From the IMG/VR virus record IMGVR_UViG_2737471843_000006, positions 1 through 11,594 of that record: DNA of 11,594 nucleotides. The stretch is one strand, 5' to 3'. Every line of letters begins with the position of its first letter. Position 1 is the stretch's first letter. This DNA is from a virus (Duplodnaviria > Heunggongvirae > Uroviricota > Caudoviricetes). The notes beneath the pieces are model-generated. The model did not search any database, had not been told where the DNA came from, and was given only the letters and a program-made list of their open reading frames with translations. This document shows, in pieces, positions 1 to 11,594 of the stretch. Both the position numbers and the translations under genes were made by a program.

Positions 1-1020
1 CTACTTACTGACCACAAGCGGCAAATCCAGTGTTGGTGTGATTTTGGTTTTACGATCGTAAATCAACACCTGATTTTCTGTTTTATGTCCACTGAAAATT
101 TGTTTGTCGCGGCTGCTGCCTTCGTAATCTGAAATCCCTTTGGCTTTTATGTCATGGAAGTTGCACCCAAACGGAGTGCCGGCTTTTTGCTCGGCTGCAC
201 GTTTAGCCTGATTCCACCAGTTGTTCAGCGTCTTAGCTATGACCTTCCCGCCTTTGGTTGTGTTGATCACATACTCGCATGTACTGGAAGATACATTTCT
301 GGCTAACTGGATCGCCGTGCGTAATCGCGGAGACCATTCTTTGATTTGCTTAGTGCCGGTCTTGTTTTGCTCAATGTAGATCCCCTTATCCATAATATCC
401 TGCCATTTCAGTTCGAGCACATCACCAAGCCTTGCCGCACAAAGATAGGATATCTCCATTGCAATGCGTAACTGTGGAGTTGCTTCCGCATATATCGCAG
501 CATACTGTTCATCGGTGATGTAAACAGTACGGGCCTTAAGCGTGAATTTTCTGACTCCTTTGCATGGATTATTTTTCACATATCCACGTTCATATCCCCA
601 TCCGTATACACGGCTCAGGCTTGCCAGTTCATGGTTTGCCTGGGTCTTGCTCTCAAGTCCTCGCTTATCCATGAAAATTCTTACCTGTTCTATTTTTACA
701 TTATCAGCAAGCACTTTTCCGAATACTGCCAGTAATGCCCTTTGATGTTGCCGATAATCTTTTTGAGTTCGTGGTGCCAGTTCTGTAAATGCAGGGGAGT
801 CCATAAACATGTGCCATAATTTAGCGACAGTCATTATGTTGTGAAGTTTTGCTTTTTCCAGTTCATAATTTTGCCAGACTTTAGCCACGCTGGTTTCCCG
901 CACTTTTCCGAGCCCTATAGTTCTTGTGCTTCCTTCGGGTTTCCATACATAACTGTAACCATTCGATCTAACACGTGGCGGCAGTGCGTTATCTTTTTTG
1001 TTTTTTCTTGGTCTTCCCAT
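1..1020 (-). CDS. int: Phage integrase, lambda-family tyrosine recombinase (339 aa)
   Basis: Complete ORF with stop at 1-3 (window edge). N-terminus MGRPRK...LPP..R.NGY...GLG parallels the lambda Int arm-binding domain. C-terminal catalytic region has R (AARLGDV), K (EQNKTG), H (FHDIK), H (SGHK) and Y (IYDRK). Start overlaps xis by 32 nt, as in lambda. Confidence 0.9.
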   Translation of the reverse strand: MGRPRKNKKDNALPPRVRSNGYSYVWKPEGSTRTIGLGKVRETSVAKVWQNYELEKAKLHNIMTVAKLWHMFMDSPAFTELAPRTQKDYRQHQRALLAVFGKVLADNVKIEQVRIFMDKRGLESKTQANHELASLSRVYGWGYERGYVKNNPCKGVRKFTLKARTVYITDEQYAAIYAEATPQLRIAMEISYLCAARLGDVLELKWQDIMDKGIYIEQNKTGTKQIKEWSPRLRTAIQLARNVSSSTCEYVINTTKGGKVIAKTLNNWWNQAKRAAEQKAGTPFGCNFHDIKAKGISDYEGSSRDKQIFSGHKTENQVLIYDRKTKITPTLDLPLVVSK

Positions 1021-1240
1021 TGTTCAGCGCCTCAAAATCGGGTTCAGCAGAAACCAGTTCAGATACTTTCGACATCGCTTTCAGCCCGTGCGGAACATCC
1101 TGGCGAAGAACTATTGGTTCGTTTTTAGGTCCGACTACAAACGGGATGCCGTGCAGCCTTAGCTGGTGTTGCTGTCTTGTGTATCGCGTGTATCTTGTGA
1201 TCTCTTCAATCTCTGCTGGCGATAGAGTTAATTCGTACAT
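989..1240 (-). CDS. xis: Excisionase, lambda Xis-like (83 aa)
   Basis: Small ORF directly upstream of int and overlapping it. N-terminal MYELTL and C-terminal basic tail NNGKTKKKQKR resemble lambda Xis (MYLTL...NGKKAKS). Weak SD (AAGG) about 11 nt upstream of the ATG. Confidence 0.6.
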   Translation of the reverse strand: MYELTLSPAEIEEITRYTRYTRQQHQLRLHGIPFVVGPKNEPIVLRQDVPHGLKAMSKVSELVSAEPDFEALNNGKTKKKQKR

Positions 1241-1306
1241 GTGGTCACGTGCCTTACAGCATGACCGCCGCCAATATAATTCGGAGACGGCGATCAGGGT
1301 TGAACA

Positions 1307-3748
1307 TTAAAAATCAACCGGATTCGGGATCAGTTTTTGCCAGATAGCTGAAACGTATTTTGCCTGGTAACGAGCGTCATCAAGTGCATTATGGCGCTCA
1401 CCTTCGAATGGAATAGCCGTTCTGGCATCGAAGTCTATGGCTTTCCCCAGCTCAACGATTGTGCGTACATCGCGATCGTTGTAGTAACGCCACGGGCAGG
1501 GGATCCCCTGCCGTTCGTATGAACGGCGCAAAATCGTGTTGTCGAAGTTGGCTCCATTTCCCCAGACCTGAACAAAAAATTCACCGGAGTTTTCGTCGAT
1601 AAATTCCCGCAATTGTAACAGTGCATCATCTAACGGGATTTCATCGGTCATAATGGCAGATTGCGCTTCGCGTGATTGCTTAAGCCACCATTTAATGGTG
1701 TCCCGATCAATGACTCCGCCAGCAGTTTCCAGATCGATAGTCTTACTAAATTCCGGTCCCATATCTCCGGTTTGCGGATCGAAAAATATTGCACCTATTG
1801 AGATGATCGGGGCATCAGGATTTTTTCCCATGGTTTCAAGGTCGATCATTAGATGGTCACACGTCCTGCTGGTGGATGTGATTTCGTGATGACCGTTCAC
1901 CTTAATTGAGTGATCTGCCGTCTCGCCAGTTTTATTATCGCTGGCGTGATGCTGATTGCCGCCAGGGTTCTCCTTGTGTGGATGTTCAGCGCCTTCCATT
2001 TCCTCCGGATCATTTTCCTGAACTTCAACCTGATTCTCTTCATCGAATGTTTCCTGGTATGTTGCGTCGCCCATCACCGCGCCACAATCAGGGCAGTTGC
2101 CGCCACCGCTCTGACCGCAGGCGGTGCAGACTTTTTCCGGTTCCTGTTGCGCTACTGGTTCGGATTGTTTCGTTTCTGGCTCGTTTTGTAACGCATTTGG
2201 GCTGTTTTGTTCCGCTTTTTGGTCGTTCCGTTCCGATTCATGCTGGTTCTGGTTCACAGAATCGCGAGTCTGGATCCCCTTGACCCATTTCGGATCATTA
2301 GGGTCGCTAATCCCCTCAACAAATTCACCACGCGATACAGCAAGTAACTTATCGGCGTCAGGCTGGCTGATATTGGCTGCCTGCATAATTTTGTTTACTT
2401 CGTCAGCGGTGACTTTTACTTGGTTAGCGGAACTCACCTGCGACTGAGCATCCAGCGACTGCGCGTTCTGGCCATGTTCAGTTGTATCCGGTTCCATTGT
2501 TTCAGTTGTTGCCTGTTCACCTGCCATTGCGTCAGATGGTTGTGGTTTTTCTTCTTCTGTTTCACGCTCAGTAACCACCTCGCGGTTAATTTCTTCCAGG
2601 ATATCTTTTTCCGGCGTATGCCGGGCAGCTGTGAGAGTTTCCTTGCTGGGGTTCTCGTGATCAGTTTCCGTCAAATAGGCGTTGATATACCCCTGAAGGC
2701 GTCCCGGGTAGTGATAAAATTCAGGGTGTGCGCTTCGGATAAGTGCAAAAATAGCGGCGCGGGAATAGTCCAGAATACCCGGGGTTGCACGAAGTGCTGC
2801 GGACCATTCTTTGAACGGACTTTCTTTGTTCAGGACTACTTCTTTTGCGCGACGATAAACGCTGCCCGGAATTTCATAAATATTAAAATCCATCGGAAGT
2901 GTGGCTGCTGCAATCTCCACATCCAGTGTGTCGAGGGTGTGTACTAAATTCGGATTGCGATCGGTTTTGTTCCCACCGCCAGCATTAGCACCGGAAGCCG
3001 TGCGGGTGATGCGTGAAACACGATTTCCTTTCATCCACTCTTTTGTCAGCAGACCCCGATCAGTGTAGTCAGCGTCCAGGTATGCTTCGAAAAAAGCAGT
3101 TATTAGTCCCAGGTCTGAATTACCAGGATTAGGGAAAACTTTGTCAGTGTCACGAACCAGTTTGTGGAGGTCGCGAATCTCCAGCGAGTCGAGCAGACTG
3201 GTTTTATGCGAAATAGCCAGGGCAGTAACAGCCGGTAGTTCTTCAGCCCGTGCAATGTGTAATGCCTGGAGTTCGTCGCGTGAAACGTGCGTTACTGGTT
3301 TTTCGCTGCCGTGTTGAGCAAGCCAACGAATGGGCAGTTCCTGACCGGAGACAGGCAGAAGCATGCTCTCCTCAATCTCAGTCATGTCTTCGCCGTTGAT
3401 GTTGGTATTGTCAGTGCTGGCTGGTTTGTCCTGAACAGAGGGGGAAGGGCCGATAAATGTCATTGTGATGCCATCTTTCCCGCCTTTTTCATAGCGGTTG
3501 CAGAATTCAGTATCAAACACGCCTTCTGGCGGAAGGTCGTCAACAACGGGCAAATTGACGCGGACGGGTTTTTTAAAGTCGTCTTCATCATAATCGTTGT
3601 CATCCATTGCGGTAATGCAGCGGGAGATTGCAACAGATAATTTTTTTGCTGTAGTCCAGTAAAAACCACCTTTAATTCCCAGGCGTTTTCTTACTTTGTC
3701 ATTTTTTGCTTCGCAATATAGTGCAAATTCTTCTTTATCAGTGCTCAT
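1307..3748 (-). CDS. Large prophage nuclease (813 aa): unknown N-terminal domain, acidic/Q-rich linker with CxxC-x8-CxxC zinc ribbon, C-terminal DEDDh (DnaQ-like) 3'-5' exonuclease domain
   Basis: Long ORF with GAGG SD 10 nt upstream of the ATG at 3748. C-terminal motifs match Exo I ([10 protein letters not shown]), Exo II ([12 protein letters not shown]) and Exo III ([12 protein letters not shown]). Central region is low-complexity E/Q/D-rich and contains [16 protein letters not shown]. Proteins in this position are often annotated exodeoxyribonuclease VIII-like. Confidence 0.8.
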
Positions 3749-3841
3749 TATTGGTAAACCTCATCACAGATTTAAGGGTGAACAAATCTCTGCCATTGCT
3801 GACATATAAGAATGAAACTGGATATTTATTACGGTGCTGTT

Positions 3842-4033
3842 TTAAAATCCTGCCGGGATTTCGTTATTATCCTGGTGAATAACTTTATCGACCGGATAAC
3901 AGTTGCCTGGAATTTTCTGTTCGGTTGCTGCTGCCATACATTCCTGCATTGTTCTGTGAACACTGACTGCAATATCAACTGGCTCTCCGGAAACAAGAAA
4001 AACCGTCAGAATAAGTGCAAATACTGGATTCAT
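3842..4033 (-). CDS. Small exported or membrane protein (63 aa from ATG at 4033)
   Basis: ATG at 4033 preceded by AAGGA SD. Hydrophobic N-terminus MNPVFALILTVFLVSG looks like a signal peptide or TM helix with no lipobox Cys. Start overlaps the stop of the upstream gene (ATGA, 4030-4033). The track ORF begins at an earlier in-frame ATG (4087) with no SD. Confidence 0.45.
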   Translation of the reverse strand: MNPVFALILTVFLVSGEPVDIAVSVHRTMQECMAAATEQKIPGNCYPVDKVIHQDNNEIPAGF

Positions 4034-4218
4034 TGTGCACATCCTTTTGGCATCAGACGTAAACGGGCCAGCATTGAAACAATGCATACTTTATTTAATA
4101 ACTCCCGTTCGTGTTTTCTCTTGTTAATGGCATCTTCAGTAAATATAGGGTTACTGATAGTGACACCAATTTCAAAACAACCTTCAGACGTATTAACGTT
4201 TGGTAATAACGTTTTCAT
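4030..4218 (-). CDS. Hypothetical small protein (62 aa)
   Basis: ATG at 4218 with GAGGG SD 8 nt upstream. Sequence MKTLLPNVNTSEGCFEIGV...LMPKGCAQ. Translationally coupled to the downstream small exported protein. The track ORF extends to a GTG at 4323 with no SD. Confidence 0.45.
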   Translation of the reverse strand: MKTLLPNVNTSEGCFEIGVTISNPIFTEDAINKRKHERELLNKVCIVSMLARLRLMPKGCAQ

Positions 4219-4439
4219 TATCGCGCCCTCAACAATGAGTTTTGTGATGCGGTGCCTGGTGCCTCCAGGTGACGTTAACCAGTTAACAATTAACGCCGGA
4301 TACAGAGAATCCACCCATAACACTGTTTTTGGTTTTAACTGTTCCGCGTGCGCTCAGCCGCATTCACCACATCACAAAATTCACTTTAAAAAGGGCGGCA
4401 GAGCAGTCACGGAGTAAAACTGATACCGCCAAACGTCAC

Positions 4440-4786
4440 CAGAAAATTGATAACAGAGGGCGTTGCAGCGGGGTTGTCACTTAAGCGTATGGTCAACCTG
4501 ACAACCCGGTGTCCTCAACGGGGGAAGGAATAACCCCGCCATACTTACCGCCTCGCCATTTCGCGGATTGCCACAACCGGAAGCGCACGGTCGACGAAAA
4601 TTTAACGACAGGCTATCTATGAACCAGCTACCTCGCCGTGCGCTTTCGCGTTATGGTCTGACTTTTCAGGGAAATATCCTTTCAGTAAACTGTCAGTGCC
4701 GGATGCTCACCCGTGTCCGGCGCACGCACTCCACCTCACCCGTGGAGAACTCCTTAATTACCAACCTTAGCTTCGTTGGTTAGCTA
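4440..4786. other. Structured GC-rich non-coding region inside the early-left operon (candidate ncRNA, terminator or processing region)
   Basis: No ORF of 60 aa or more with an SD on either strand between 4219 and 4786. Perfect 9-bp inverted repeat GGGTTGTCA (4471-4479) / TGACAACCC (4499-4507). GC hairpins at 4519-4538, 4696-4723 and 4760-4780. Confidence 0.3.
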
Positions 4787-5005
4787 TTAACGCGGGTATG
4801 TAATCATTCTGGCAATGCTTAATGCCGCTGCTTTTTCCAGCCTGGTGATATCCTGTTCCAGAGCGGACAGATTTTCAGCCTGCTTAGCCCTGGCTTCATT
4901 GGCCCATTTCAGATCCTGCGCTGCATTAATTTTCTGGCGCATCCACTCATAAAGTTCATCATCGGTATAGTCTGGTGCGATGATGACGGGTTCTCGTTTC
5001 TGCAT
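4787..5005 (-). CDS. Hypothetical small protein (72 aa)
   Basis: ATG at 5005 with GAGGAA SD 7 nt upstream, stop TAA at 4787-4789. Part of the leftward chain of small genes downstream of the pL-like promoter. Confidence 0.5.
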   Translation of the reverse strand: MQKREPVIIAPDYTDDELYEWMRQKINAAQDLKWANEARAKQAENLSALEQDITRLEKAAALSIARMITYPR

Positions 5006-5034
5006 ACTGATTCCTCGCGGTGCTGTTTCGCTTA

Positions 5035-5163
5035 TCAGCCGTTAGATTTTGCCGAGCTGGAAAGCGCCTGTTTAAATTCGTTGAAGCTGAGAGCTTCTTC
5101 GCCGTCGGCAAGACCTTCGAAGTATTCTTCATAAGCCTTTTCCATGATTGTGTCGAAATCCAT
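5035..5163 (-). CDS. Hypothetical acidic mini-protein (42 aa; not in the ORF track)
   Basis: ATG at 5161-5163 preceded by AGGTGA SD, one nucleotide after the stop of the upstream gene (TGA 5165-5167). Translation MDFDTIMEKAYEEYFEGLADGEEALSFNEFKQALSSSAKSNG, stop TGA at 5035-5037. Confidence 0.35.
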   Translation of the reverse strand: MDFDTIMEKAYEEYFEGLADGEEALSFNEFKQALSSSAKSNG

Positions 5164-5164
5164 A

Positions 5165-5401
5165 TCACTCACCTGAGTTTCTTTCCAGCCAGCGACGGGC
5201 ACCATTTTCGGTTTTAAACGTTTTGCTTTTGGTATACGTCATCGCGGTGAACGTACCGTCCTGGTTGGGGAACACGCCACATACCAGAGATTCGCTGTTG
5301 CCAAGATCGATAGTATCCATGCTGACCTCATTTCCCCTTAACGCCGGGGTAGCGGAACAAAAACCTGCTGCATAGTTATTAAAGTTGAACCCTGCCGTCA
5401 T
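5165..5401 (-). CDS. Hypothetical small protein (78 aa from ATG 5401; alternative start at 5320 gives 51 aa)
   Basis: First gene downstream of the pL-like promoter. ATG 5401 has GAGG about 9 nt upstream; the internal ATG 5320 (MDTIDLG...) has a better-placed GAGG 6 nt upstream. Stop is tightly coupled to the next ORF. Confidence 0.4.
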   Translation of the reverse strand: MTAGFNFNNYAAGFCSATPALRGNEVSMDTIDLGNSESLVCGVFPNQDGTFTAMTYTKSKTFKTENGARRWLERNSGE

Positions 5402-5501
5402 GTTCTTACGCCTCGGGCTGGCTACTTAACCCCTGACCACTGCCTGGTAACTCGAGGTATTGCCCTGTATTGTGTGGGACGGGATGGGTTGGTATGGGAA
5501 A

Positions 5502-5546
5502 ACTATAGGAAATGCCTAATTACTTGTCAATAGGCTATGCCTAATA
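5502..5546 (-). promoter_or_regulatory. Left operator/promoter (OL/pL-like): -35 TTGACA (minus; plus 5524-5529), 16-bp spacer, -10 TATAGT (plus 5502-5507), overlapping operator palindromes
   Basis: Operator AATAGGCTATGCCTAAT at 5529-5545 and weaker site at 5504-5520, centres about 25 bp apart. 5524-5545 is the exact reverse complement of 6168-6189 on the other side of the repressor gene. Confidence 0.5.
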
Positions 5547-5638
5547 ATTTGGGCGCAACCTAATAGGTGATGGTTTGTGGGAGAGGTAGTAGGAGTTAAC
5601 TAACGGGAACTAGGAATTTCCCGTCGGACCATATAAGT

Positions 5639-6115
5639 TTAAGTTCCTGTCTTGGTGATGTTCTGGCTTTTCCGTTTTGATTCTTGATTTTTCAGATAGT
5701 TAGCTACCTTCATTTCCATTGCGGCAATGTAGGCGCGAACGTCATGATCAACCCAACTAGGCTCCGTAGCATTTCCAGATAAGATGAAAGCCACAATTGC
5801 TCTTTTTTCATCAGAGGCGGCTTGATAAAGGCTGTTTATGTCTAAAAGTTCACTTTTTGTATCTGAAGTGGATGGGGTTGGTATGGGGTATTCGTTAAGC
5901 CCCCAATGCTCTGGACCAACCACATCAGAAAAGAAACGCCATAGTTCTGGAAGTTTGTCTTTACTTATCGAACCTTTCTTAATCCAGTCATGGATTGATG
6001 GTGGTTGGACTTTGAAATGACGTGCGATTTCCGCCTTTGATTTGACGGCTCCTGATGCAATTTTTTTGTTAATGGCCTGCTCTATCGCTCGGCCTAAGTC
6101 TTTACCACTAAGCAT
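5639..6115 (-). CDS. racR: Prophage repressor, HTH (XRE/cI-like) DNA-binding protein, RacR-like (158 aa)
   Basis: N-terminal HTH AEIARHFKVQPPSIHDWIKKG. Transcribed divergently from a Cro-like gene, with operator palindromes on both sides. Size and arrangement fit the racR-ydaS-ydaT module of Rac-type prophages; the symbol rests on architecture and memory, not on a search. Confidence 0.8.
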   Translation of the reverse strand: MLSGKDLGRAIEQAINKKIASGAVKSKAEIARHFKVQPPSIHDWIKKGSISKDKLPELWRFFSDVVGPEHWGLNEYPIPTPSTSDTKSELLDINSLYQAASDEKRAIVAFILSGNATEPSWVDHDVRAYIAAMEMKVANYLKNQESKRKSQNITKTGT

Positions 6116-6142
6116 TGCTTAATAGTCTCCTATGCGCATCGC

Positions 6143-6212
6143 GTTAGGCAATCCCTACTCTCGATGTATTAGGCATAGCCTATTGACAATTTAATTAGGC
6201 TAAGCCTAATAT
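6143..6212 (+). promoter_or_regulatory. Right operator/promoter (OR/pR-like): three operator sites and -35 TTGACA (6183-6188) / -10 TAATAT (6207-6212)
   Basis: Perfect palindrome ATTAGGC-TAA-GCCTAAT at 6194-6210, near-palindrome ATTAGGCATAGCCTATT at 6168-6184 and a weaker site at 6143-6159, centres 25-26 bp apart. The -35 and -10 overlap the operators. Confidence 0.55.
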
Positions 6213-6239
6213 TGTTGCGTGTTTTTTGGAGTTCATTCG

Positions 6240-6563
6240 ATGAAAAAAGATAACTATTCATTCAAACGAGCTTGTGCTGTTGTCGGTGGGCAATCAGCAA
6301 TGGCTAGGCTTTTAGGTGTATCTCCTCCAAGCGTAAATCAATGGATCAAAGGTGTACGTCAGTTACCTGCTGAGAGATGTCCTGCGATTGAACGAGCAAC
6401 AAAAGGTGGTGTCCTGTGTGAAGAACTTCGTCCTGATGTTGATTGGACATACTTACGACGCTCGTCATGTTATTCGCAGAATATGTCGATGAAGCAACCA
6501 AATGACGAAAACGATCATACCCGAAGCATCAAGAGGCAAATGATTCATGAAAATCAAACATGA
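6240..6563 (+). CDS. ydaS: Cro-like HTH regulator, YdaS-like (107 aa from ATG 6240)
   Basis: GGAG SD 9 nt upstream of ATG 6240. HTH SAMARLLGVSPPSVNQWIKG, with a recognition helix similar to that of the repressor. First gene of the rightward operon from the pR-like promoter. The track ORF starts at 6219 with no SD. Confidence 0.75.
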   Translation: MKKDNYSFKRACAVVGGQSAMARLLGVSPPSVNQWIKGVRQLPAERCPAIERATKGGVLCEELRPDVDWTYLRRSSCYSQNMSMKQPNDENDHTRSIKRQMIHENQT

Positions 6564-6972
6564 GCACATCCGCATGGCGATGAATGCCTGGGCATACCCT
6601 GATGGTGAGAAAGTTCCTGCAGCTGAAATAGCCCGGACTTATTTCGAACTGGGGATGACGTTCCCTGAACTGTACGACGACAGCCATCCGGAAGCCCTGG
6701 CCCGTAATACCCAGAAAATTTTCCGTTGGCTGGATAAAGACACCCCTGATGCTGTTGAAAAAATGCAGGCTCTGTTACCGGCGATCGAAAAGGCGATGCC
6801 GCCTTTGCTGGTGGCCCGTATGCGCAGCCACAGTTCTGAATATTACCGTGAGATCGTCGAACGGAGGGATCGGCTGGTGAAGGATGTCGATGATTTTGTT
6901 GCGTCAGCGGTTGTTTTGTATGACCAGATGAATCGCGGCGGCCCGGCAGGGAATGCTGTGGTGATGCACTAA
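6547..6972 (+). CDS. ydaT: YdaT-like protein (141 aa), proposed CII-like regulator or toxin of Rac-type prophages
   Basis: Start overlaps the ydaS-like gene by 17 nt, with AAGAGG upstream. Size and position match ydaT. Sequence MKIKHEHIRMAMNAWAYPDGEK... Confidence 0.7.
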   Translation: MKIKHEHIRMAMNAWAYPDGEKVPAAEIARTYFELGMTFPELYDDSHPEALARNTQKIFRWLDKDTPDAVEKMQALLPAIEKAMPPLLVARMRSHSSEYYREIVERRDRLVKDVDDFVASAVVLYDQMNRGGPAGNAVVMH

Positions 6973-6994
6973 AAGCACGGTGTTCGGGGGTTTT

Positions 6995-7957
6995 ATGAGC
7001 AGCAAGCTTCATGGTCTTGTCTGGGAAGGGTGCGCCTTCACCGGCATGATCTTATCCAGGGTGGCGGTTATGGCCCGTCTTGCAGACTACAGCAATGACG
7101 AGGGCGTGTCATGGCCTGCCATTGAAACTATCCGGCGTCAGATCGGTGCAAGAAGTGAATCCACAGTGAAATCGGCTATTGCAGAACTGGCGAAAGAGGG
7201 CTGGCTGACGAAGGAAGAGCGTAAGGTCGGTGGGCGTAATGTAAGCAATATCTATCGGCTTAATGTGGAAAAACTCGAAGCAGCTGCGGCGGCGGCGCGT
7301 GAGTCATATAAACCGAAAAGAAAAATTAGCCCGGCAAAAAATGACCAGTTAACAGTTGACCCGTCAAATATTGACCCCTCAACGGTTGACCCGTCAAATT
7401 TTGATGGATCAACTGTTGATAAAAAACTGCCGATTAGGGGGGCGATGATTGACCCCGATCCGTCAGTATTAAAACCTGATCCGTCAGATAAAAGATCTTC
7501 TTGTCCGGACGCTTCGCAACCGGACCCGCAGACGGCTGAACAGGATTTTTTAACCCGACACCCTGACGCGGTTGTGTTCAGTGCGAAAAAACGCCAGTGG
7601 GGAAGTCAGGAAGATTTGGTGTGCGCACAGTGGATCTGGGGACGAATCGTGAGTCTTTACGAGCAGGCGGCCAGCGATGATGGCGAGATCACTAGACCGA
7701 AAGAACCCAACTGGACAGCATGGGCCAATGACGTTCGCACAATGCGGATGCTGGATGGCAGAACTCACAGACAAATTTGTGAAATGTTTGGGCGTCTCCA
7801 GCGGGATTCGTTCTGGGTAAAAAACATCATGAGTCCGGCAAAACTCCGGGAAAAATGGGATGAACTGGTTATCCGCCTGGGGCGTTCGCCTGCGCAGCGT
7901 TGCGTGAATCACATTTCTGAACCGGACACTGAAATTCCGCCGGGCTTCAGGGGGTAA
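6995..7957 (+). CDS. Replication initiation protein: N-terminal winged-helix domain, repeat-containing linker, DnaT-like C-terminal domain
   Basis: N-terminus LSRVAVMARLADYSNDEGVSWPAIETIRRQIGARSESTVKSAIAELAKEGWL is typical of phage/plasmid initiator wHTH domains. C-terminus ...VNHISEPDTEIPPGFRG resembles the C-terminus of E. coli primosomal protein DnaT. Start could instead be GTG 6980; ATG 6995 follows a G-rich stretch. Confidence 0.75.
   Translation: MSSKLHGLVWEGCAFTGMILSRVAVMARLADYSNDEGVSWPAIETIRRQIGARSESTVKSAIAELAKEGWLTKEERKVGGRNVSNIYRLNVEKLEAAAAAARESYKPKRKISPAKNDQLTVDPSNIDPSTVDPSNFDGSTVDKKLPIRGAMIDPDPSVLKPDPSDKRSSCPDASQPDPQTAEQDFLTRHPDAVVFSAKKRQWGSQEDLVCAQWIWGRIVSLYEQAASDDGEITRPKEPNWTAWANDVRTMRMLDGRTHRQICEMFGRLQRDSFWVKNIMSPAKLREKWDELVIRLGRSPAQRCVNHISEPDTEIPPGFRG
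7355..7420. repeat. Iteron array (putative replication origin) inside the initiator gene
   Basis: 15-bp perfect direct repeat GTTGACCCGTCAAAT at 7355-7369 and 7385-7399. Degenerate copies TTGACCCCTCAA (7371-7382) and TTGATGGATCAA (7401-7412) give a 15-16 bp period. Each unit has internal dyad symmetry TTGAC..GTCAA. A further repeat GATCCGTCAG lies at 7457-7466 and 7478-7487. Confidence 0.5.
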
Positions 7958-7997
7958 GTGTTAATTTCTGGTCATGAGGTAATTTTCAGGAGGGCTT

Positions 7998-8420
7998 GTG
8001 GCAAAAGTTTTTACACAAGAAGAGCGGGAAAAAATTAAAGGGCAGGTTGTTGAACTCGTACGCCAGAGTGGGCGCGAGACGTTACGACAACTGGAAACTA
8101 AAACTGGGGCAACAAGATATCTGATGAGCGTTCTCGCCAGAGAGCTGGTTGCCAGTGGCGACGTATATAACTCCGGCTACGGGTTATTACCGTCAGAACA
8201 GGCTCGTAAGGACTGGCAAAATGCCCGCAAAAAACTATCCAGGGCAAAGGTGAAGAAACCATCTGTGGTTGATCCTGACCTTATCTGGTCATTACCTGAC
8301 GGAGAAATACGTCGCTACGACAGGAGTATGAACATAATCTGTCACGAGTGCCGGAAGAGTGAGGTTATGCAGCGAGTGCTGGCGTTTTATCAGGGTAATT
8401 ATCAGGAGGTGATGCTGTGA
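7998..8420 (+). CDS. Hypothetical protein (140 aa), possible winged-helix DNA-binding protein, coupled to the downstream methyltransferase
   Basis: GTG start at 7998 with AGGAGG SD at 7988-7993. Segment RETLRQLETKTGATRYLMSVLARELVASGDV is HTH-like. Its stop TGA (8418-8420) overlaps the GTG start (8417) of the methyltransferase. Confidence 0.55.
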   Translation: MAKVFTQEEREKIKGQVVELVRQSGRETLRQLETKTGATRYLMSVLARELVASGDVYNSGYGLLPSEQARKDWQNARKKLSRAKVKKPSVVDPDLIWSLPDGEIRRYDRSMNIICHECRKSEVMQRVLAFYQGNYQEVML

Positions 8421-8890
8421 GTGCACCGGCAACCATTCTTGATATGTGCTGCGGCAGCCGCATGTTCTGGTTTGATAAGAATGACGACCGGGCGATATTT
8501 AGCGATATCAGAAAGGAAGAGCACACATTGTGTGATGGACGACGCCTGATTATCAGTCCTGATCTGATAGCTGATTTTCGTGCACTACCATTTGCAGACG
8601 CATCTTTTTCGATGGTTATATTCGATCCTCCGCATCTTGAGCGTGTTGGTGATAACGCCTGGATGGGAAAGAAATATGGACGGCTGAATAAAGATACCTG
8701 GCGTGATGATTTGCGGCAGGGATTTAAAGAAGCCTTTCGTGTGTTGCGTCCATACGGCGTTCTGATTTTTAAATGGAATGAAACGCAAATACCTGTTCGC
8801 CAGATATTGGTGCTGACCGACAGAAAACCTGTTATCGGTCAACGAACAGGAAAAAACGATAAAACCCACTGGATTATTTTTATGAAATAG
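8417..8890 (+). CDS. Minimal SAM-dependent methyltransferase (157 aa) with DPPH catalytic motif; likely orphan DNA (N6-A or N4-C) or nucleic-acid amino-methyltransferase
   Basis: Motif I-like ILDMCCGSRMFWF (G-x-G type SAM loop), acidic motif II (IFSDIRKEE) and motif IV VIFDPPH. No obvious target-recognition domain. AGGAGG SD 7 nt upstream of the GTG start. Confidence 0.7.
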   Translation: MSAPATILDMCCGSRMFWFDKNDDRAIFSDIRKEEHTLCDGRRLIISPDLIADFRALPFADASFSMVIFDPPHLERVGDNAWMGKKYGRLNKDTWRDDLRQGFKEAFRVLRPYGVLIFKWNETQIPVRQILVLTDRKPVIGQRTGKNDKTHWIIFMK

Positions 8891-9011
8891 GCATCCAGTG
8901 AGTAGGTTAGTAAGGTTACAGATACGTATATCTGAATAATTAAATTCAGTTCTGTAAATAAAATTTAATCCTTAACCGGAGGGATTTCTGCACCCTCAGA
9001 ACATCAGGAGG

Positions 9012-9027
9012 CCGCCCGAAAGGGCGG
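9012..9027 (+). promoter_or_regulatory. GC hairpin with GAAA tetraloop between an SD-like AGGAGG and the start codon of the downstream gene
   Basis: CCGCCC (9012-9017) / GGGCGG (9022-9027) stem, loop GAAA. AGGAGG at 9006-9011 and ATG at 9037. The hairpin leaves an effective 9-nt spacer. No U-tract follows, so it is not a classic terminator. Confidence 0.35.
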
Positions 9028-9036
9028 TAACAAATA

Positions 9037-9513
9037 ATGCAAGAAATCAAAGAAAATATCAGGCAACAGCTTTACGGGTTTTATATTGCTTATGATTTGT
9101 GGCTGAAGAACGGGGCAAAACCCGGCGGAGTGTTTTCTCAAAATTATGGTTTATGCGCCAATCTTTTCGATTATCTCACATTAATTGGTACCCCCTGTGA
9201 GGCAGCGCTGGAGCAATTACACGCTGATTTCAGAAGTGCCGGGCTGAATGAGGCGTTGCCGTTTAACGAGGGTAAAGAGCATTACCATGAAGAAAGAGGG
9301 CACAACATGTGCCATATGAATCCGGCACGAGTGGCGTGGGTCAGGGCGCAGACAGGGCAGCCAGCGCCGGAAGGACTGGTTAAAGCGGTGCGTTTTTATG
9401 AGCAGGTAAAACGTGAGAACCCGCCAGTCGAAACAGGAGCATGGAAAGACGCTGTTGACTGGGTGCTCAAAGAGGCTTGCCAGGCTGTAAACATTGGCAT
9501 CAAAGGAGAGTGA
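9037..9513 (+). CDS. Hypothetical protein (158 aa)
   Basis: ORF starts after the AT-rich intergenic region and SD-hairpin arrangement. No motif I can name. Stop TGA (9511-9513) lies 2 nt before the next ATG. Confidence 0.6.
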   Translation: MQEIKENIRQQLYGFYIAYDLWLKNGAKPGGVFSQNYGLCANLFDYLTLIGTPCEAALEQLHADFRSAGLNEALPFNEGKEHYHEERGHNMCHMNPARVAWVRAQTGQPAPEGLVKAVRFYEQVKRENPPVETGAWKDAVDWVLKEACQAVNIGIKGE

Positions 9514-9515
9514 GA

Positions 9516-10007
9516 ATGCAAATTTCACCGGTTACTCTTCGTGTTGCGAAGGCGTTTATATCCAGACATCACCGACACAATAAACCACCTGTTGGGCATA
9601 AATTCAGCATTGGTCTGATAAATGATGCCGGAGAATTGATAGGTGTGGCGACAGCTGGTCGACCTGTTGCACGACATTTGGACGATGGATTAACGCTTGA
9701 AGTAAATCGCACATGTACCACAGGAGAACGCAACGCTAACAGCGCGCTTTATGGTGCTGTCTGGCGAGCAGCAAAAGCTATGGGTTATCAACGTTGTATT
9801 ACGTACACCCAGGCAGATGAATCAGGAGCATCTCTTCGCGCAGCTGGTTTTGTTCGTGTGAAAGAGCTTCCTCCAAGAAAAAGCTGGGCGGAATCAAGCG
9901 TCGCCCTGCGGAGTAAACGCGATCCGGTCGGAAACGGTGGTGTTCCTCGTGTGCTCTGGGAAATCAGGAGAATGAGTACCACTGGCATTCGCATCAAAGG
10001 AGAGTGA
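9516..10007 (+). CDS. GNAT-fold-like protein (163 aa), possible N-acetyltransferase
   Basis: ATG 9516 with AGGAG SD 7 nt upstream. Segment LEVNRTCTTGERNANSALYGAVWRAAKAMGYQRCITYT fits the GNAT beta4-loop-alpha3-beta5 core, but the canonical Q/R-x-x-G-x-G/A motif is not clear. Confidence 0.5.
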   Translation: MQISPVTLRVAKAFISRHHRHNKPPVGHKFSIGLINDAGELIGVATAGRPVARHLDDGLTLEVNRTCTTGERNANSALYGAVWRAAKAMGYQRCITYTQADESGASLRAAGFVRVKELPPRKSWAESSVALRSKRDPVGNGGVPRVLWEIRRMSTTGIRIKGE

Positions 10008-10020
10008 TATGGCAACTTTG
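9991..10020 (+). repeat. Gene-boundary repeat, copy A (AAAGGAGAGTGATATGGCAACTTTG)
   Basis: 25 nt at 9996-10020 are identical to 10654-10678. GCATCAAAGGAGAGTGA (9991-10007) is also shared with 9497-9513. The repeat spans the last codons, stop, SD and first codons at gene junctions. Confidence 0.6.
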
Positions 10021-10296
10021 CAGGAATTAATCGACCTGACGCCAGAACAGGAAAAAGCGTGGAATCGCCTTGTGAAGGCTGTAAAGGATTTCAGGGCAGC
10101 CGGAGGAAAGTTTTATAGCGTCCTGGACACGCTGAGCGCATACAACGGCGAGCACGTTGCCAGCATTGATAACGATAAGGGCTACCACACTGCAAGCGTC
10201 TATATGCCTAGCATTGATGCGCCAGGGCTAACCAGTTGGGCTGATGATTGGCACGGCATCACGCTGAAAGATGGGGTTGAAGTGGATGAGGACTAA
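10009..10296 (+). CDS. Hypothetical protein (95 aa)
   Basis: ATG 10009 with AGGAG SD 8 nt upstream, inside the boundary repeat. Stop TAA at 10294-10296, 3 nt before the next ATG. Confidence 0.55.
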   Translation: MATLQELIDLTPEQEKAWNRLVKAVKDFRAAGGKFYSVLDTLSAYNGEHVASIDNDKGYHTASVYMPSIDAPGLTSWADDWHGITLKDGVEVDED

Positions 10297-10299
10297 CAC

Positions 10300-10665
10300 A
10301 TGACTACTTTTACCGACAAAGAAATGATTAAAGAAATCAAAGAGCGTATAGGCAGCCTGGACGTCCGAGACAATATTGAGCGTCGGGCTTATGAAATCGC
10401 ACTGGCATCGCTGGAGGCAGAACCAGTTGCTTATATTTTCAAACATCCGGCCGGGAAATTATTCTGGGCTTTAACGGATGAAAGCAATAAAGAGCAATCG
10501 GACGTTATTCCTGTTTATGCCGCCCCTCCAGTGCCAGTAGTACCTGAAGAAAAACCAATGCCTAACCCTCTTAAAATGTACGCGGTTGATGCTGTTGCCG
10601 CTATTGCAGAGGTGAGAGGCTGGAACGCCTGTCGTGCCGCTATGCTTCAGGGGAAAGGAGAGTGA
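10300..10665 (+). CDS. Hypothetical protein (121 aa), paralog of the truncated ORF at 10941
   Basis: GAGG SD 8 nt upstream. Shares motifs IALASLEAEPVA, PxPVVP and ACRAAMLQ with the ORF at 10941. Ends in KGE-stop inside a boundary repeat. Confidence 0.55.
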   Translation: MTTFTDKEMIKEIKERIGSLDVRDNIERRAYEIALASLEAEPVAYIFKHPAGKLFWALTDESNKEQSDVIPVYAAPPVPVVPEEKPMPNPLKMYAVDAVAAIAEVRGWNACRAAMLQGKGE

Positions 10666-10678
10666 TATGGCAACTTTG
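10654..10678 (+). repeat. Gene-boundary repeat, copy B (AAAGGAGAGTGATATGGCAACTTTG)
   Basis: Identical 25-mer to 9996-10020. It contains the stop of the 121-aa gene, the SD and the MATL start of the next gene. Confidence 0.6.
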
Positions 10679-10930
10679 ACAAAAAAAGAACAAGCATGGT
10701 TGAACGAATTACAGGACGTTCTTGATCGCTGCCCATCACCGAAAAAAATTGGTTTTTACACCATTGGCGATAAAAGCATTTACCTGTATGACCTGCGCCG
10801 CATGGATGAAATCATGGAGGCTCTTGATAATCGTTCGTCAATGGATTGGTGTGTTGCTGTCCATGATATGAATGCCGGATTTGAAGAAAAGATTTTGTTC
10901 CCCTCGTCAGTTGAAAGCACTGCGGGTTAA
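10667..10930 (+). CDS. Hypothetical protein (87 aa from ATG 10667)
   Basis: ATG 10667 with AGGAG SD 8 nt upstream. The track ORF starts at 10634 but that ATG lies inside the previous gene and has no SD. N-terminus MATLTKKEQAW resembles that of the 10009 gene. Confidence 0.5.
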   Translation: MATLTKKEQAWLNELQDVLDRCPSPKKIGFYTIGDKSIYLYDLRRMDEIMEALDNRSSMDWCVAVHDMNAGFEEKILFPSSVESTAG

Positions 10931-10940
10931 GGAGTAACAC

Positions 10941-11594
10941 ATGACCACTATTACCAAAGAGCGACTGCTGACAATCAAGCAGTGGCGCGAAACATACGGA
11001 CCTGGTAGCAACGTTGTACTGCCAGCAGAAGAAGCGGAAGAGCTGGCACGGATTGCTCTGGCATCGCTGGAAGCAGAACCGGTGGCATGGACTGATGAAG
11101 AGGAACTGCGCGATGTCAGGAAGTATGGTTTCGGTGAGATATTTCAGTGTCCGCCAGATAAATATGCGGACCCGCGTCGTGTAATCTCGCTGTATCGCGA
11201 GCTGCCAGCACCGGTAGTGCCAGATGATTGGCAACTCGTACCTAAGAAAATAACACTGGAAATGGAATGTGCTCTATCAAAAGCTGATAGCTATGAAATT
11301 GGTTGGCTATGGGCATTGGCAGCCGCACCTAAATACGAAGTACAGAACGCTAAACGCGTGCAAAACGCGCTTAACGCCTGCCGCGCCGCCATGCTTCAGT
11401 CCGGAAACTTTCGGGAAAACAAGAATTCGTCAACCAATAATTTTCGGGAAATCGCGGAAACGTCAACCAACTCTCCGGTAATTCCTGATGAGGTGTTGTC
11501 CGCAATCCGGGAGGTTGCCAGGATTCGCGCCGATTTCGATGATTTTGACGGTGACAGGCGAGGTATCGGTGATTGCCTGGATGAGGCCGAGCAA
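10941..11594 (+). CDS. Hypothetical protein, 3'-truncated by the window end (at least 218 codons), paralog of 10300-10665
   Basis: ATG 10941 with AAGGAG SD 6 nt upstream. Open frame runs to the window end with no stop, so it is absent from the ORF track. Shares IALASLEAEPVA, PAPVVP and ACRAAMLQ with the 121-aa protein. Contains a 33-bp tandem repeat at 11405-11470. Confidence 0.55.
   Translation, partial: MTTITKERLLTIKQWRETYGPGSNVVLPAEEAEELARIALASLEAEPVAWTDEEELRDVRKYGFGEIFQCPPDKYADPRRVISLYRELPAPVVPDDWQLVPKKITLEMECALSKADSYEIGWLWALAAAPKYEVQNAKRVQNALNACRAAMLQSGNFRENKNSSTNNFREIAETSTNSPVIPDEVLSAIREVARIRADFDDFDGDRRGIGDCLDEAEQ

Follow-up and report, generated by a model that had tools for sequence, protein, structure and literature searches.

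The exonuclease gene described here lies at positions 1307..3748 on the minus strand of the window, an 11,594-nucleotide stretch of viral DNA (positions 1 to 11,594 of IMG/VR record IMGVR_UViG_2737471843_000006) corresponding to the left arm of a lambdoid Escherichia coli prophage of the Qin/DicB type. Profile and pairwise comparisons identify its 813-residue product as the non-catalytic N-terminal region of RecE, in which the PD-(D/E)XK nuclease has been exchanged at a domain boundary for a DEDDh nuclease. The protein is not a resection enzyme of the lambda Exo or RecE type. The gene is a very common and already annotated variant of known families, and no paper on the fused protein itself was found in literature searches.

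The C-terminal nuclease domain

Residues 632-803 matched the Pfam family PF16473 (Rv2179c-like) over model positions 2-177 of 177, with 228.2 bits against a cut-off of 27. An earlier note, made from the letters of the sequence, had pointed to the motifs DLETMG, NGANFD, and HNALDDA; all three were found, at residues 636, 731, and 786, respectively, and the catalytic residues D636/E638/D736/H786/D791 were at least 98% conserved among 131 of the best family representatives. A search of 1.84 billion cluster representatives returned 12,171 relatives at E ≤ 1e-3. The sole solved sequence relative at E ≤ 0.01 was a 227-residue chain named 'Exodeoxyribonuclease' (8KEL/8KEN; E value, 1.9e-6), and the printed alignment of the 8KEL chain matches the sequence of T4 DexA. 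The window pentad aligned with the catalytic residues D7/E9/D119/H186/D191 of T4 DexA. The generic Pfam model RNase_T scored 21.6 bits, which is under its cut-off of 24. These matches are far beyond chance and assign the domain to the DnaQ-like DEDDh 3'-5' exonuclease fold, not to PD-(D/E)XK; the earlier note had drawn the same distinction, and the profile search, which could have placed the domain in the RecE family, placed it in PF16473. The protein is very probably an active metal-dependent 3'-5' exonuclease. DNA is a reasonably likely substrate because the closest solved relative, T4 DexA, is a 3'-5' DNA exonuclease. The predicted polarity is opposite to that of the 5'-3' PD-(D/E)XK nuclease of RecE.

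Relationship to RecE and position of the domain swap

Residues 1-615 of the window protein matched positions 1-602 of the 877 positions of the NCBIfam RecE model PRK09709. The equivalog score was 943 bits, short of the cut-off of 1269 for a full-length protein, since positions 603-877, the final third of the model, had no counterpart. In BLASTP analysis, residues 58-615 aligned with residues 50-591 of Rac RecE (K-12 b1350) at 59% identity, and nothing aligned beyond. The swap point is fixed by P0122, a database protein that has 88% identity to RecE 1-592 and runs on into the DEDDh domain. The homology switches directly after '...TGE(T/V)AD(P/H)xI', which corresponds to window residue 615 and RecE residue 591 and lies just ahead of the crystallized RecE nuclease domain (residues 606-866). 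Thus, when examined as a RecE family member, the window protein has the N-terminal region of approximately 590 residues and lacks the PD-(D/E)XK domain (RecE 606-866). The earlier note had described an N-terminal domain of about 330 residues without a recognizable motif, a description that is replaced by the matches to PRK09709 and Rac RecE and by the Pfam domain PF06630 at residues 57-189. Since the N-terminal part is the RecE region, the window protein is tied to the recombination nuclease family. According to a review, the function of the RecE N-terminal domain is unknown and the nuclease domain alone suffices genetically. The features of the gene and its product are as follows.

1307..3748 (minus strand): complete coding sequence of the 813-residue RecE-N::DEDDh exonuclease; single intact open reading frame (ORF) with ATG start, stop codon at 1307-1309
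3449..3748 (minus strand): N-terminal alpha/beta domain, residues 1-100, the variable part; AlphaFold2 (AF2) predicted local distance difference test (pLDDT) score 75-92
3182..3580 (minus strand): Pfam Exonuc_VIII (PF06630), residues 57-189; E value, 1.7e-35, 123 bits against a cut-off of 25
3029..3391 (minus strand): helical domain, residues 120-240; AF2 pLDDT approximately 89-95, approximately 93% identical to Rac RecE
2663..2941 (minus strand): conserved helical core domain, residues 270-362, found in every long variant
1874..2662 (minus strand): acidic, Q/N-rich low-complexity linker, residues 363-625, predicted to be disordered
2279..2329 (minus strand): conserved short motif in the linker, residues 474-490 (includes ISDPNDPKW), common to RecE
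2084..2128 (minus strand): zinc ribbon CTAC-x7-CPDC, residues 541-555; regular-expression match, also in RecE
1901..1906 (minus strand): domain-swap junction, residues 615/616; BLASTP homology stops at RecE residue 591
1340..1855 (minus strand): DEDDh 3'-5' exonuclease domain (Rv2179c-like/DexA), residues 632-803; Pfam E value, 7.1e-68
Catalytic codons (minus strand): D636 at 1841-1843, E638 at 1835-1837, D736 at 1541-1543, H786 at 1391-1393, and D791 at 1376-1378

The sequence GAGG is located 10 nt 5' of the start codon. A gene 100% identical to the window exonuclease is present in E. coli 33F4, where it is labeled '3'-5' exonuclease', and RefSeq gives a coding sequence with matching coordinates in a prophage 99.3% identical to the window.

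The AF2 model of residues 1-400 was built from 104 diverse enterobacterial sequences; it had a mean pLDDT of 82.8 and consisted of three folded parts (residues 1-100, 120-240, and 270-360). The first part contains strands at residues 6-14 and 27-34 and a helix at 37-50, and its first 57 residues or so are unlike Rac RecE, with the BLASTP alignment beginning at residue 58. The sliding identity to Rac RecE was 0.93 across residues 121-240, and the nucleotide identity to recE was 92% across nucleotides 339-792 of the gene. The third part, the helical core at residues 270-362, is common to the RecE type, the YdfE/Qin type described below, and other enterobacterial long forms. The model of residues 424-813 was poor (mean pLDDT, 48.8), and its Foldseek matches (Mad2, EAL domains, and others), all with E > 0.5, were meaningless and were discarded.

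The linker is poorly conserved, with 19% D + E and 18% Q + N in residues 400-630 and a pLDDT below 50 over most of residues 424-640. Identity to RecE is high again at the ISDPNDPKW motif and at the zinc ribbon. The motif (residues 474-490) is nearly identical to residues 464-480 of Rac RecE and forms an island of conservation within the linker, which makes it a candidate partner-binding motif. The zinc ribbon is equivalent to Rac RecE 517-531, weakly matched Pfam DZR (E value, 0.096), and is nearly invariant among the E. coli forms and present in about half of the more distant long forms. The earlier note had recognized this ribbon, and its spacing is corrected here from x8 to x7.

Absence of an annealase partner

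A six-frame Pfam scan of window positions 1200-5500 detected no RecT, Bet, Erf, or Rad52 family in any frame and matched only DUF1391 (ydfA), DUF1482 (ydfD), and DicB. The statement that no annealase lies between 1241 and 5400 therefore held when all frames were read. No annealase family was found among ten larger ORFs elsewhere in the window, eight of which are to the right of position 5500. Tritos, a functional phage, likewise has no annealase in the annotation of its early-left operon.

The survey was extended to the neighboring ORFs of 80 related IMG/VR loci, for which ORFs of at least 120 residues were clustered; the listing comprised the 25 most frequent among 80 Pfam families, and ten candidate clusters were in addition scanned in full. 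No annealase was found among the families listed, with the limit that two of the ten scanned clusters are recurrent ORFs of PHROGs of unknown function (phrog_35040 and phrog_2151). These two may have a role in DNA transactions. The other clusters scanned in full as candidates for a hidden annealase proved to be repressors, a Rha-type regulator, insertion sequence (IS) transposases, and an out-of-frame ORF inside the exonuclease gene. The two recurrent ORFs, at L057:2522-3139 (205 residues) and L073:2215-2865 (216 residues), were observed upstream of the exonuclease in nine and four loci, respectively, and had no Pfam match.

With no annealase (RecT, Bet, Erf, Rad52, or Sak4) beside it, the window nuclease is not a SynExo. 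It occupies the lambdoid early-left slot equivalent to that of lambda Exo-Bet but differs from this pair in fold, in predicted polarity, and in the lack of an annealase. Likewise, the place of the gene in the early-left operon upstream of xis-int is the same as that of Rac recE, and the two proteins have the ISDPNDPKW motif and the zinc ribbon in common, whereas the window gene has no recT at its 3' side and carries DEDDh instead of PD-(D/E)XK. Among genome loci, RecT followed RecE-N joined to the Rac-type PD-(D/E)XK domain in four of four cases and followed intact DEDDh versions in none of three. These results indicated that the nuclease type tracks the RecT partner at RecE-N loci.

The fusion may stem from a deletion that joined recE to a downstream stand-alone exonuclease and removed the RecE nuclease domain and recT, because stand-alone exonuclease genes adjoin xis-int in mEp460-type phages. 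A Salmonella enterica protein of 435 residues (P0431) carries both Exonuc_VIII (PF06630) and RecT (PF03837) domains; a frameshift or a deletion may have joined recE to recT in this case.

Stand-alone homologues and recombination modules

DnaQ-like nucleases have been listed as members of lambdoid recombination (Rec) modules (Zheng et al., Genome Res 2025; PMC12315714). Phage mEpX2 encodes a 182-residue stand-alone homologue with 59% identity to the window domain; its gene lies between those of single-stranded DNA-binding protein (SSB) and the anti-RecBCD protein Abc2, with a Rad52-like annealase gene (PF04098) on the other side of SSB. Among 60 stand-alone loci from IMG/VR, modules of the mEpX2 type were found at 15-16, and RdgC was found at 5. 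At approximately 39 of the 60, the genes upstream included DUF2303, a weak sub-threshold match to YfbR-like 5'-deoxynucleotidase, and a dATP/dGTP-pyrophosphohydrolase fusion, and a PrtN-like excisionase and an integrase were commonly located downstream. The earlier note had asked whether homologues ever neighbor an annealase. The stand-alone relatives do, and annealase neighbors were seen only for this form, with none among the neighbor families listed for the 80 related viral loci. Because stand-alone homologues neighbor annealases, a link to recombination has to be kept in view.

The window gene is flanked by ydfD and xis, not by SSB, annealase, or anti-RecBCD genes, and is thus not a module member, whereas the mEpX2 homologue is one. 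The module nucleases of lambdoid phages (mEpX2; epsilon34 type) resemble the window protein in their domain, in their early-left operon, and in their position near xis-int. They differ in being separate proteins of 182-190 residues flanked by a Rad52-like annealase, SSB, and Abc2, whereas the window protein is fused to RecE-N and is without these partners. The gene fits the second class of Zheng et al., the sporadic DnaQ genes near int.

Operon and prophage setting

On the minus strand, the order is a cI-like gene, a pL-like promoter, ydfA, ydfB, ydfC, the DicF small RNA, dicB, ydfD, the exonuclease gene, xis, and int.

5502..5530 (minus strand): pL-like early-left promoter TTGACA-17-TATAGT; agrees with the consensus at 11 of 12 positions and ranks first among sites in 900-6400
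5165-5320 (minus strand): ydfA; RefSeq of the 99.3% identical prophage, Pfam DUF1391
5035-5163 (minus strand): ydfB; RefSeq of the same prophage
4787-5005 (minus strand): ydfC; RefSeq of the same prophage
4393-4444 (minus strand): DicF small RNA; Rfam RF00039, 76.7 bits
4030-4218 (minus strand): dicB; RefSeq of the same prophage, Pfam DicB
3842-4033 (minus strand): ydfD; RefSeq of the same prophage, Pfam DUF1482
989-1240 (minus strand): xis (excisionase, DUF4224), abutting the exonuclease gene; Pfam and RefSeq
1-1020 (minus strand): int (tyrosine integrase), the left prophage end; Pfam and RefSeq

The int and xis genes abut the nuclease gene, as had been noticed from the letters. The consensus match of the pL-like site and its position beside the cI-like gene suggest that it drives the operon containing the exonuclease gene. 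No promoter-like site belonging to the exonuclease gene itself was found on its strand in a scan of 900-6400. Two weak terminator-like sites were detected on the minus strand, at 4004-3981 in ydfD and 3536-3522 in the exonuclease gene, and the 93-bp interval separating these two genes has none. DicF and dicB are just upstream in the operon, so the exonuclease would be co-transcribed with the cell-division-inhibition module. By analogy with Rac recET, its expression should follow prophage induction and be silent in the lysogen.

The exonuclease gene fills the slot of lambda exo and Rac recE, between kil-like genes and xis-int. Further E. coli prophages, O157:H7 among them, have the order dicB-ydfD-exonuclease-xis-int and likewise lack an annealase. 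A matching order was found, again with no annealase, in a 39-kb prophage that appears to be complete and encodes RusA and an HK97-type head and, with none annotated, in the early-left operon of phage Tritos (complete genome). The prophage that is 99.3% identical to the window adjoins yccA.

Several other genes of the window were also inspected. The early-right region contains a DNA methyltransferase (8417-8890, plus strand; phrog_954; E value, 3e-86) and a Mom-like DNA-modification protein (9477-10007, plus strand; phrog_1384; E value, 1e-42), the RefSeq counterpart of which in a related prophage is named 'XF1762 family'. Judged by these matches, the two look like anti-restriction DNA-modification functions. 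The 158-residue ORF at the cI-repressor position (5639-6115, minus strand) had no match in Pfam (E ≤ 0.01) or PHROG (E ≤ 0.001), and the genes at the Cro and CII positions matched 'YdaS/YdaT toxin' families. Two Chi sites (GCTGGTGG) are present at 1868-1875 and 6807-6814, both on the plus strand, compared with 0.34 expected, and 11 of 200 shuffled sequences reached two. The related 39-kb prophage (NZ_CM171611) has nine Chi sites, six on one strand and three on the other, and its 25-kb flanks have ten, a density of the same order. Counted as a possible sign of dependence on RecBCD, the Chi sites may resemble those of lambdoid phages that contain Chi and have no Rec module.

Distribution, variants, and selection

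DNA of the DEDDh domain (597 nt) was present at a coverage of at least 80% in 4054 of 5426 complete E. coli genomes; there were 8104 such places, up to seven per genome, mostly at 95-99% identity. The whole window gene was covered to at least 80% in 1245 complete E. coli genomes, and the long form is carried by viable phages such as Tritos; mEp460_ev081 and PhiR42_1 are further viable carriers of the gene. Across the 80 viral loci, two N-terminal types were found on a common C-terminal part of approximately 370 residues, RecE-N in 12 and the YdfE type (823 residues) in 53. An intact ORF of at least 750 residues was retained in 69 of these loci (86%), and frameshifted or truncated copies were found in 10, in Shigella (L016), and in Stx2a phages. 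More distant long forms have 450-900 residues and nuclease domains that are 55-73% identical, and a separate search with an N-terminal profile, built from non-E. coli segments, gave matches named from Salmonella, Klebsiella, Citrobacter, Hafnia, and Kluyvera. Overall, no fewer than two unrelated N-terminal types carry the DEDDh module, and many enterobacterial variants have it as well.

The YdfE/Qin type has the same dicB-ydfD-exonuclease-xis-int locus and the same C-terminal part (linker, zinc ribbon, and DEDDh) as the window gene, but its first 250 residues or so are unrelated to the window protein. Strain NH-21 has an intact YdfE-type exonuclease of 823 residues at the equivalent locus (L020:4641-7112). 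In K-12, IS2 interrupts the pseudogene ydfE (b1577; L004:5079-5999), the product of which has 99% identity to residues 1-256 of the NH-21 protein, and K-12 therefore once carried the sister variant. That ydfE might be a remnant of the window gene itself was also considered and rejected: the two have no BLASTP similarity, and ydfE is the N-terminus of the 823-residue sister variant.

Against the O157 copy, the ratio of nonsynonymous to synonymous substitution rates (dN/dS) was 0.12 for residues 1-229 at a dS of 0.54, and the N-terminal module is under purifying selection. The DEDDh domain (window 1307-1903), which was compared with L002, L008, L009, L010, L020, and L021, is 97-99% identical among otherwise mosaic genes, the N-terminal halves of which are 15-88% identical. 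The near-identical segment beside xis suggests recent spread or homogenization among E. coli prophages.

In RefSeq, the DEDDh-type protein is named '3'-5' exonuclease' or 'exonuclease', and GenBank records ON470612, ON470619, OV696610 (Tritos), and LR597641 use 'exodeoxyribonuclease VIII' or 'exonuclease VIII, ds DNA exonuclease'; 'exonuclease VIII, 5'-3' dsDNA exonuclease' is also a frequent GenBank name for it. The exonuclease VIII label, transferred from the N-terminal similarity to RecE, is probably wrong in both fold and polarity.

Comparison with DexA, HREX, and TONDO

The window domain (PF16473; E value, 7e-68) and T4 DexA are members of one domain family and agree in the catalytic residues D-E-D-H-D. 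Most proteins of this family, DexA included, stand alone and have approximately 180-230 residues (96 of 131 representatives have at most 260), whereas the window domain forms the C-terminus of a much longer protein. The structure of DexA has been solved, and its E. coli homologue EcD cuts T4 DNA modified with 5-hydroxymethylcytosine (5hmC) and protects cells from T4, a system named HREX (Kang et al., NAR 2025; PMC12153337). A 189-residue EcD-like protein was recovered by means of the published primer; it starts with MIDTET and has Ala78, as published for EcD, and is 37% identical to window residues 634-806 (183 residues). This protein was also observed on IMG/VR viral contigs, at L205:6401-6970 (minus strand) and in identical form in L184, L189, L199, and L202, with one substitution in L200; large same-strand ORFs lie near the EcD-like gene.

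EcD resembles the window protein in having the DexA-family DEDDh fold on E. coli mobile DNA but differs in being a stand-alone protein of 189 residues in another genomic context. HREX proteins are recognized by the loss of D90, the tetramer residue of DexA, and the retention of W152 and D169, which have been reported to recognize 5hmC. The window protein has the opposite pattern: D90 is kept as D708, and W152 and D169 correspond to Y756 and A770, with the alignment less certain around D169, which lies in a loop. EcD itself has Ala at D90 and Trp at W152, where the window protein has Asp and Tyr. ISG20-like DEDDh exonucleases with auxiliary domains (TONDO) have been described in prophages as a defense against MS2 and Qbeta (2026 preprint; PMC13344964). 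TONDOs are ISG20-like, and the Pfam RNase_T score of the window protein (21.6 against a cut-off of 24 bits) hints that it may lie outside this group.

Possible role of the fused exonuclease

We tentatively favor, at somewhat less than even confidence, a role in accessory end processing for phage replication or recombination, given the descent from RecE, the place in the operon, and the location of close homologues within Rec modules. Transcription from the pL-like promoter after induction or infection would yield the protein along with DicF, DicB, and YdfD, and the protein would act on free 3' ends, most probably of DNA, in a metal-dependent, 3'-to-5' manner. The RecE N-terminal module would serve as a flexible tether or targeting platform that is independent of nuclease polarity and of RecT. 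End processing might, for example, shorten 3' tails or flaps of linear DNA from the phage or the host; phages of this class, with neither an annealase nor a RecBCD inhibitor of their own, would have to rely on host RecBCD/RecA. Of the lambdoid phages, 22% are without a Rec module (Zheng et al., 2025; PMC12315714). A link to recombination is also in keeping with the finding that full-length RecE, unlike the nuclease domain alone, enhances linear-linear recombination (PMC11611040). The earlier note had suggested a function other than homologous recombination. It was right in that the protein is not a classical recombination exonuclease, and the RecE derivation and the relatives in Rec modules (15-16 of 60 loci) still connect it with recombination.

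Several points weigh against accessory end processing. DnaQ-type 3'-5' exonucleases usually inhibit homologous recombination in E. coli, and sporadic DnaQ-type genes near int are not counted as Rec-module members (Zheng et al., 2025; PMC12315714). Approximately 39 of the 60 stand-alone homologues are located beside nucleotide-metabolism genes, not annealases. Pfam describes Rv2179c, the founding member of the family, as an exoribonuclease, so an RNA substrate is possible. For the DEDDh domain, dS within E. coli is 0.008-0.05, which is too low for dN/dS to be interpreted. No informative structural relatives were found for the predicted RecE-N folds, and the targeting platform is thus a conjecture.

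A bolder form of the proposal, which we consider unlikely, is that RecE-N is an autonomous, nuclease-independent platform and that the DEDDh version, the most frequent 'exonuclease VIII' among E. coli prophages, performs an undescribed early phage function that is independent of an annealase. RecE-N would then be coupled either to a 5'-3' PD-(D/E)XK nuclease and RecT or to a 3'-5' DEDDh nuclease without an annealase. Removal of 3' tails could, for example, keep host RecA, RecBCD, or immune sensors off phage or host ends, or it could provide an unrecognized route to concatemer formation.

The enzyme might instead act in scavenging or turnover, degrading DNA (or RNA) fragments to mononucleotides from the 3' end during lytic growth as DexA would and feeding phage DNA synthesis, with RecE-N as a mere carrier; this is rather unlikely. 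Host DNA degradation is the annotated function of T4 DexA, the nearest relative with a solved structure (Kang et al., 2025; PMC12153337). The nucleotide-metabolism-type neighbors at approximately 39 of 60 stand-alone lambdoid loci, which lie upstream on the same strand, also fit such a role. However, scavenging would leave unexplained why a 615-residue RecE-N is conserved under purifying selection and how a quarter of the stand-alone homologues come to be members of Rec modules, and temperate lambdoid phages are not known to degrade the host chromosome. A prophage defense or exclusion nuclease that destroys a superinfecting genome, either modified DNA as in HREX or the 3' ends of RNA phages as in TONDO, would have precedents in EcD, a member of the DexA family (PMC12153337) with an EcD-like relative of the window protein as described above, and in the prophage exonucleases that counter MS2 and Qbeta (PMC13344964). 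This explanation, part of which the earlier note had raised as exclusion, is decidedly unlikely: the specificity residues W152/D169 are replaced by Y756/A770 and D90 is retained as D708, the gene belongs to a repressor-controlled early-left operon downstream of the pL-like promoter, lacks a promoter-like site on its strand, and should be silent in the lysogen, and the RNase_T score does not reach the cut-off, TONDOs being ISG20-like.

The earlier note had leaned toward anti-defense, for which no positive support was found. Here the nuclease would remove host immune nucleic acids with a free 3' end, such as retron multicopy single-stranded DNA, reverse-transcribed cDNA, or linear oligonucleotide signals, or would act on host DNA or RNA ends. 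Co-expression with early lytic genes would fit counter-defense, and a prophage class without a RecBCD inhibitor might need another protection of DNA ends. On the other hand, searches of the anti-defense literature gave no match, and the association of relatives with Rec modules is more simply read as DNA metabolism. Cyclic nucleotide signals have no 3' end and are not substrates of DEDDh exonucleases, so the degradation of cyclic oligonucleotides is improbable for an enzyme requiring a free 3' end. We therefore regard an anti-defense role as very unlikely. That the gene is a functionless relic, left when a deletion removed the RecE nuclease domain, recT, and neighboring genes and fused the remainder by chance to a stand-alone exonuclease, is highly improbable. 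Stand-alone homologues directly upstream of xis-int in mEp460-type phages show how a deletion could create the fusion, and the frameshifted or truncated copies would agree with decay. Yet the DEDDh DNA is found in 4054 of 5426 genomes at up to seven places each, 86% of viral loci are intact, viable phages carry the gene, dN/dS is 0.12 in the N-terminal domain, and the nuclease module occurs on at least two unrelated N-terminal types and in many enterobacterial variants.

Roughly three of every four complete E. coli genomes contain the nuclease module, frequently in more than one copy, and viable temperate phages carry it too. Nature has thus carried out a swap in which the approximately 600-residue N-terminal region of RecE is kept with a nuclease of predicted opposite polarity and without RecT. 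This natural experiment offers a direct way into the decades-old question of what the RecE N-terminal region does. It is also relevant to the handling of DNA ends by the many lambdoid phages that lack a recombination module and bears on whether the DexA-family nucleases of prophages serve recombination, scavenging, or defense.

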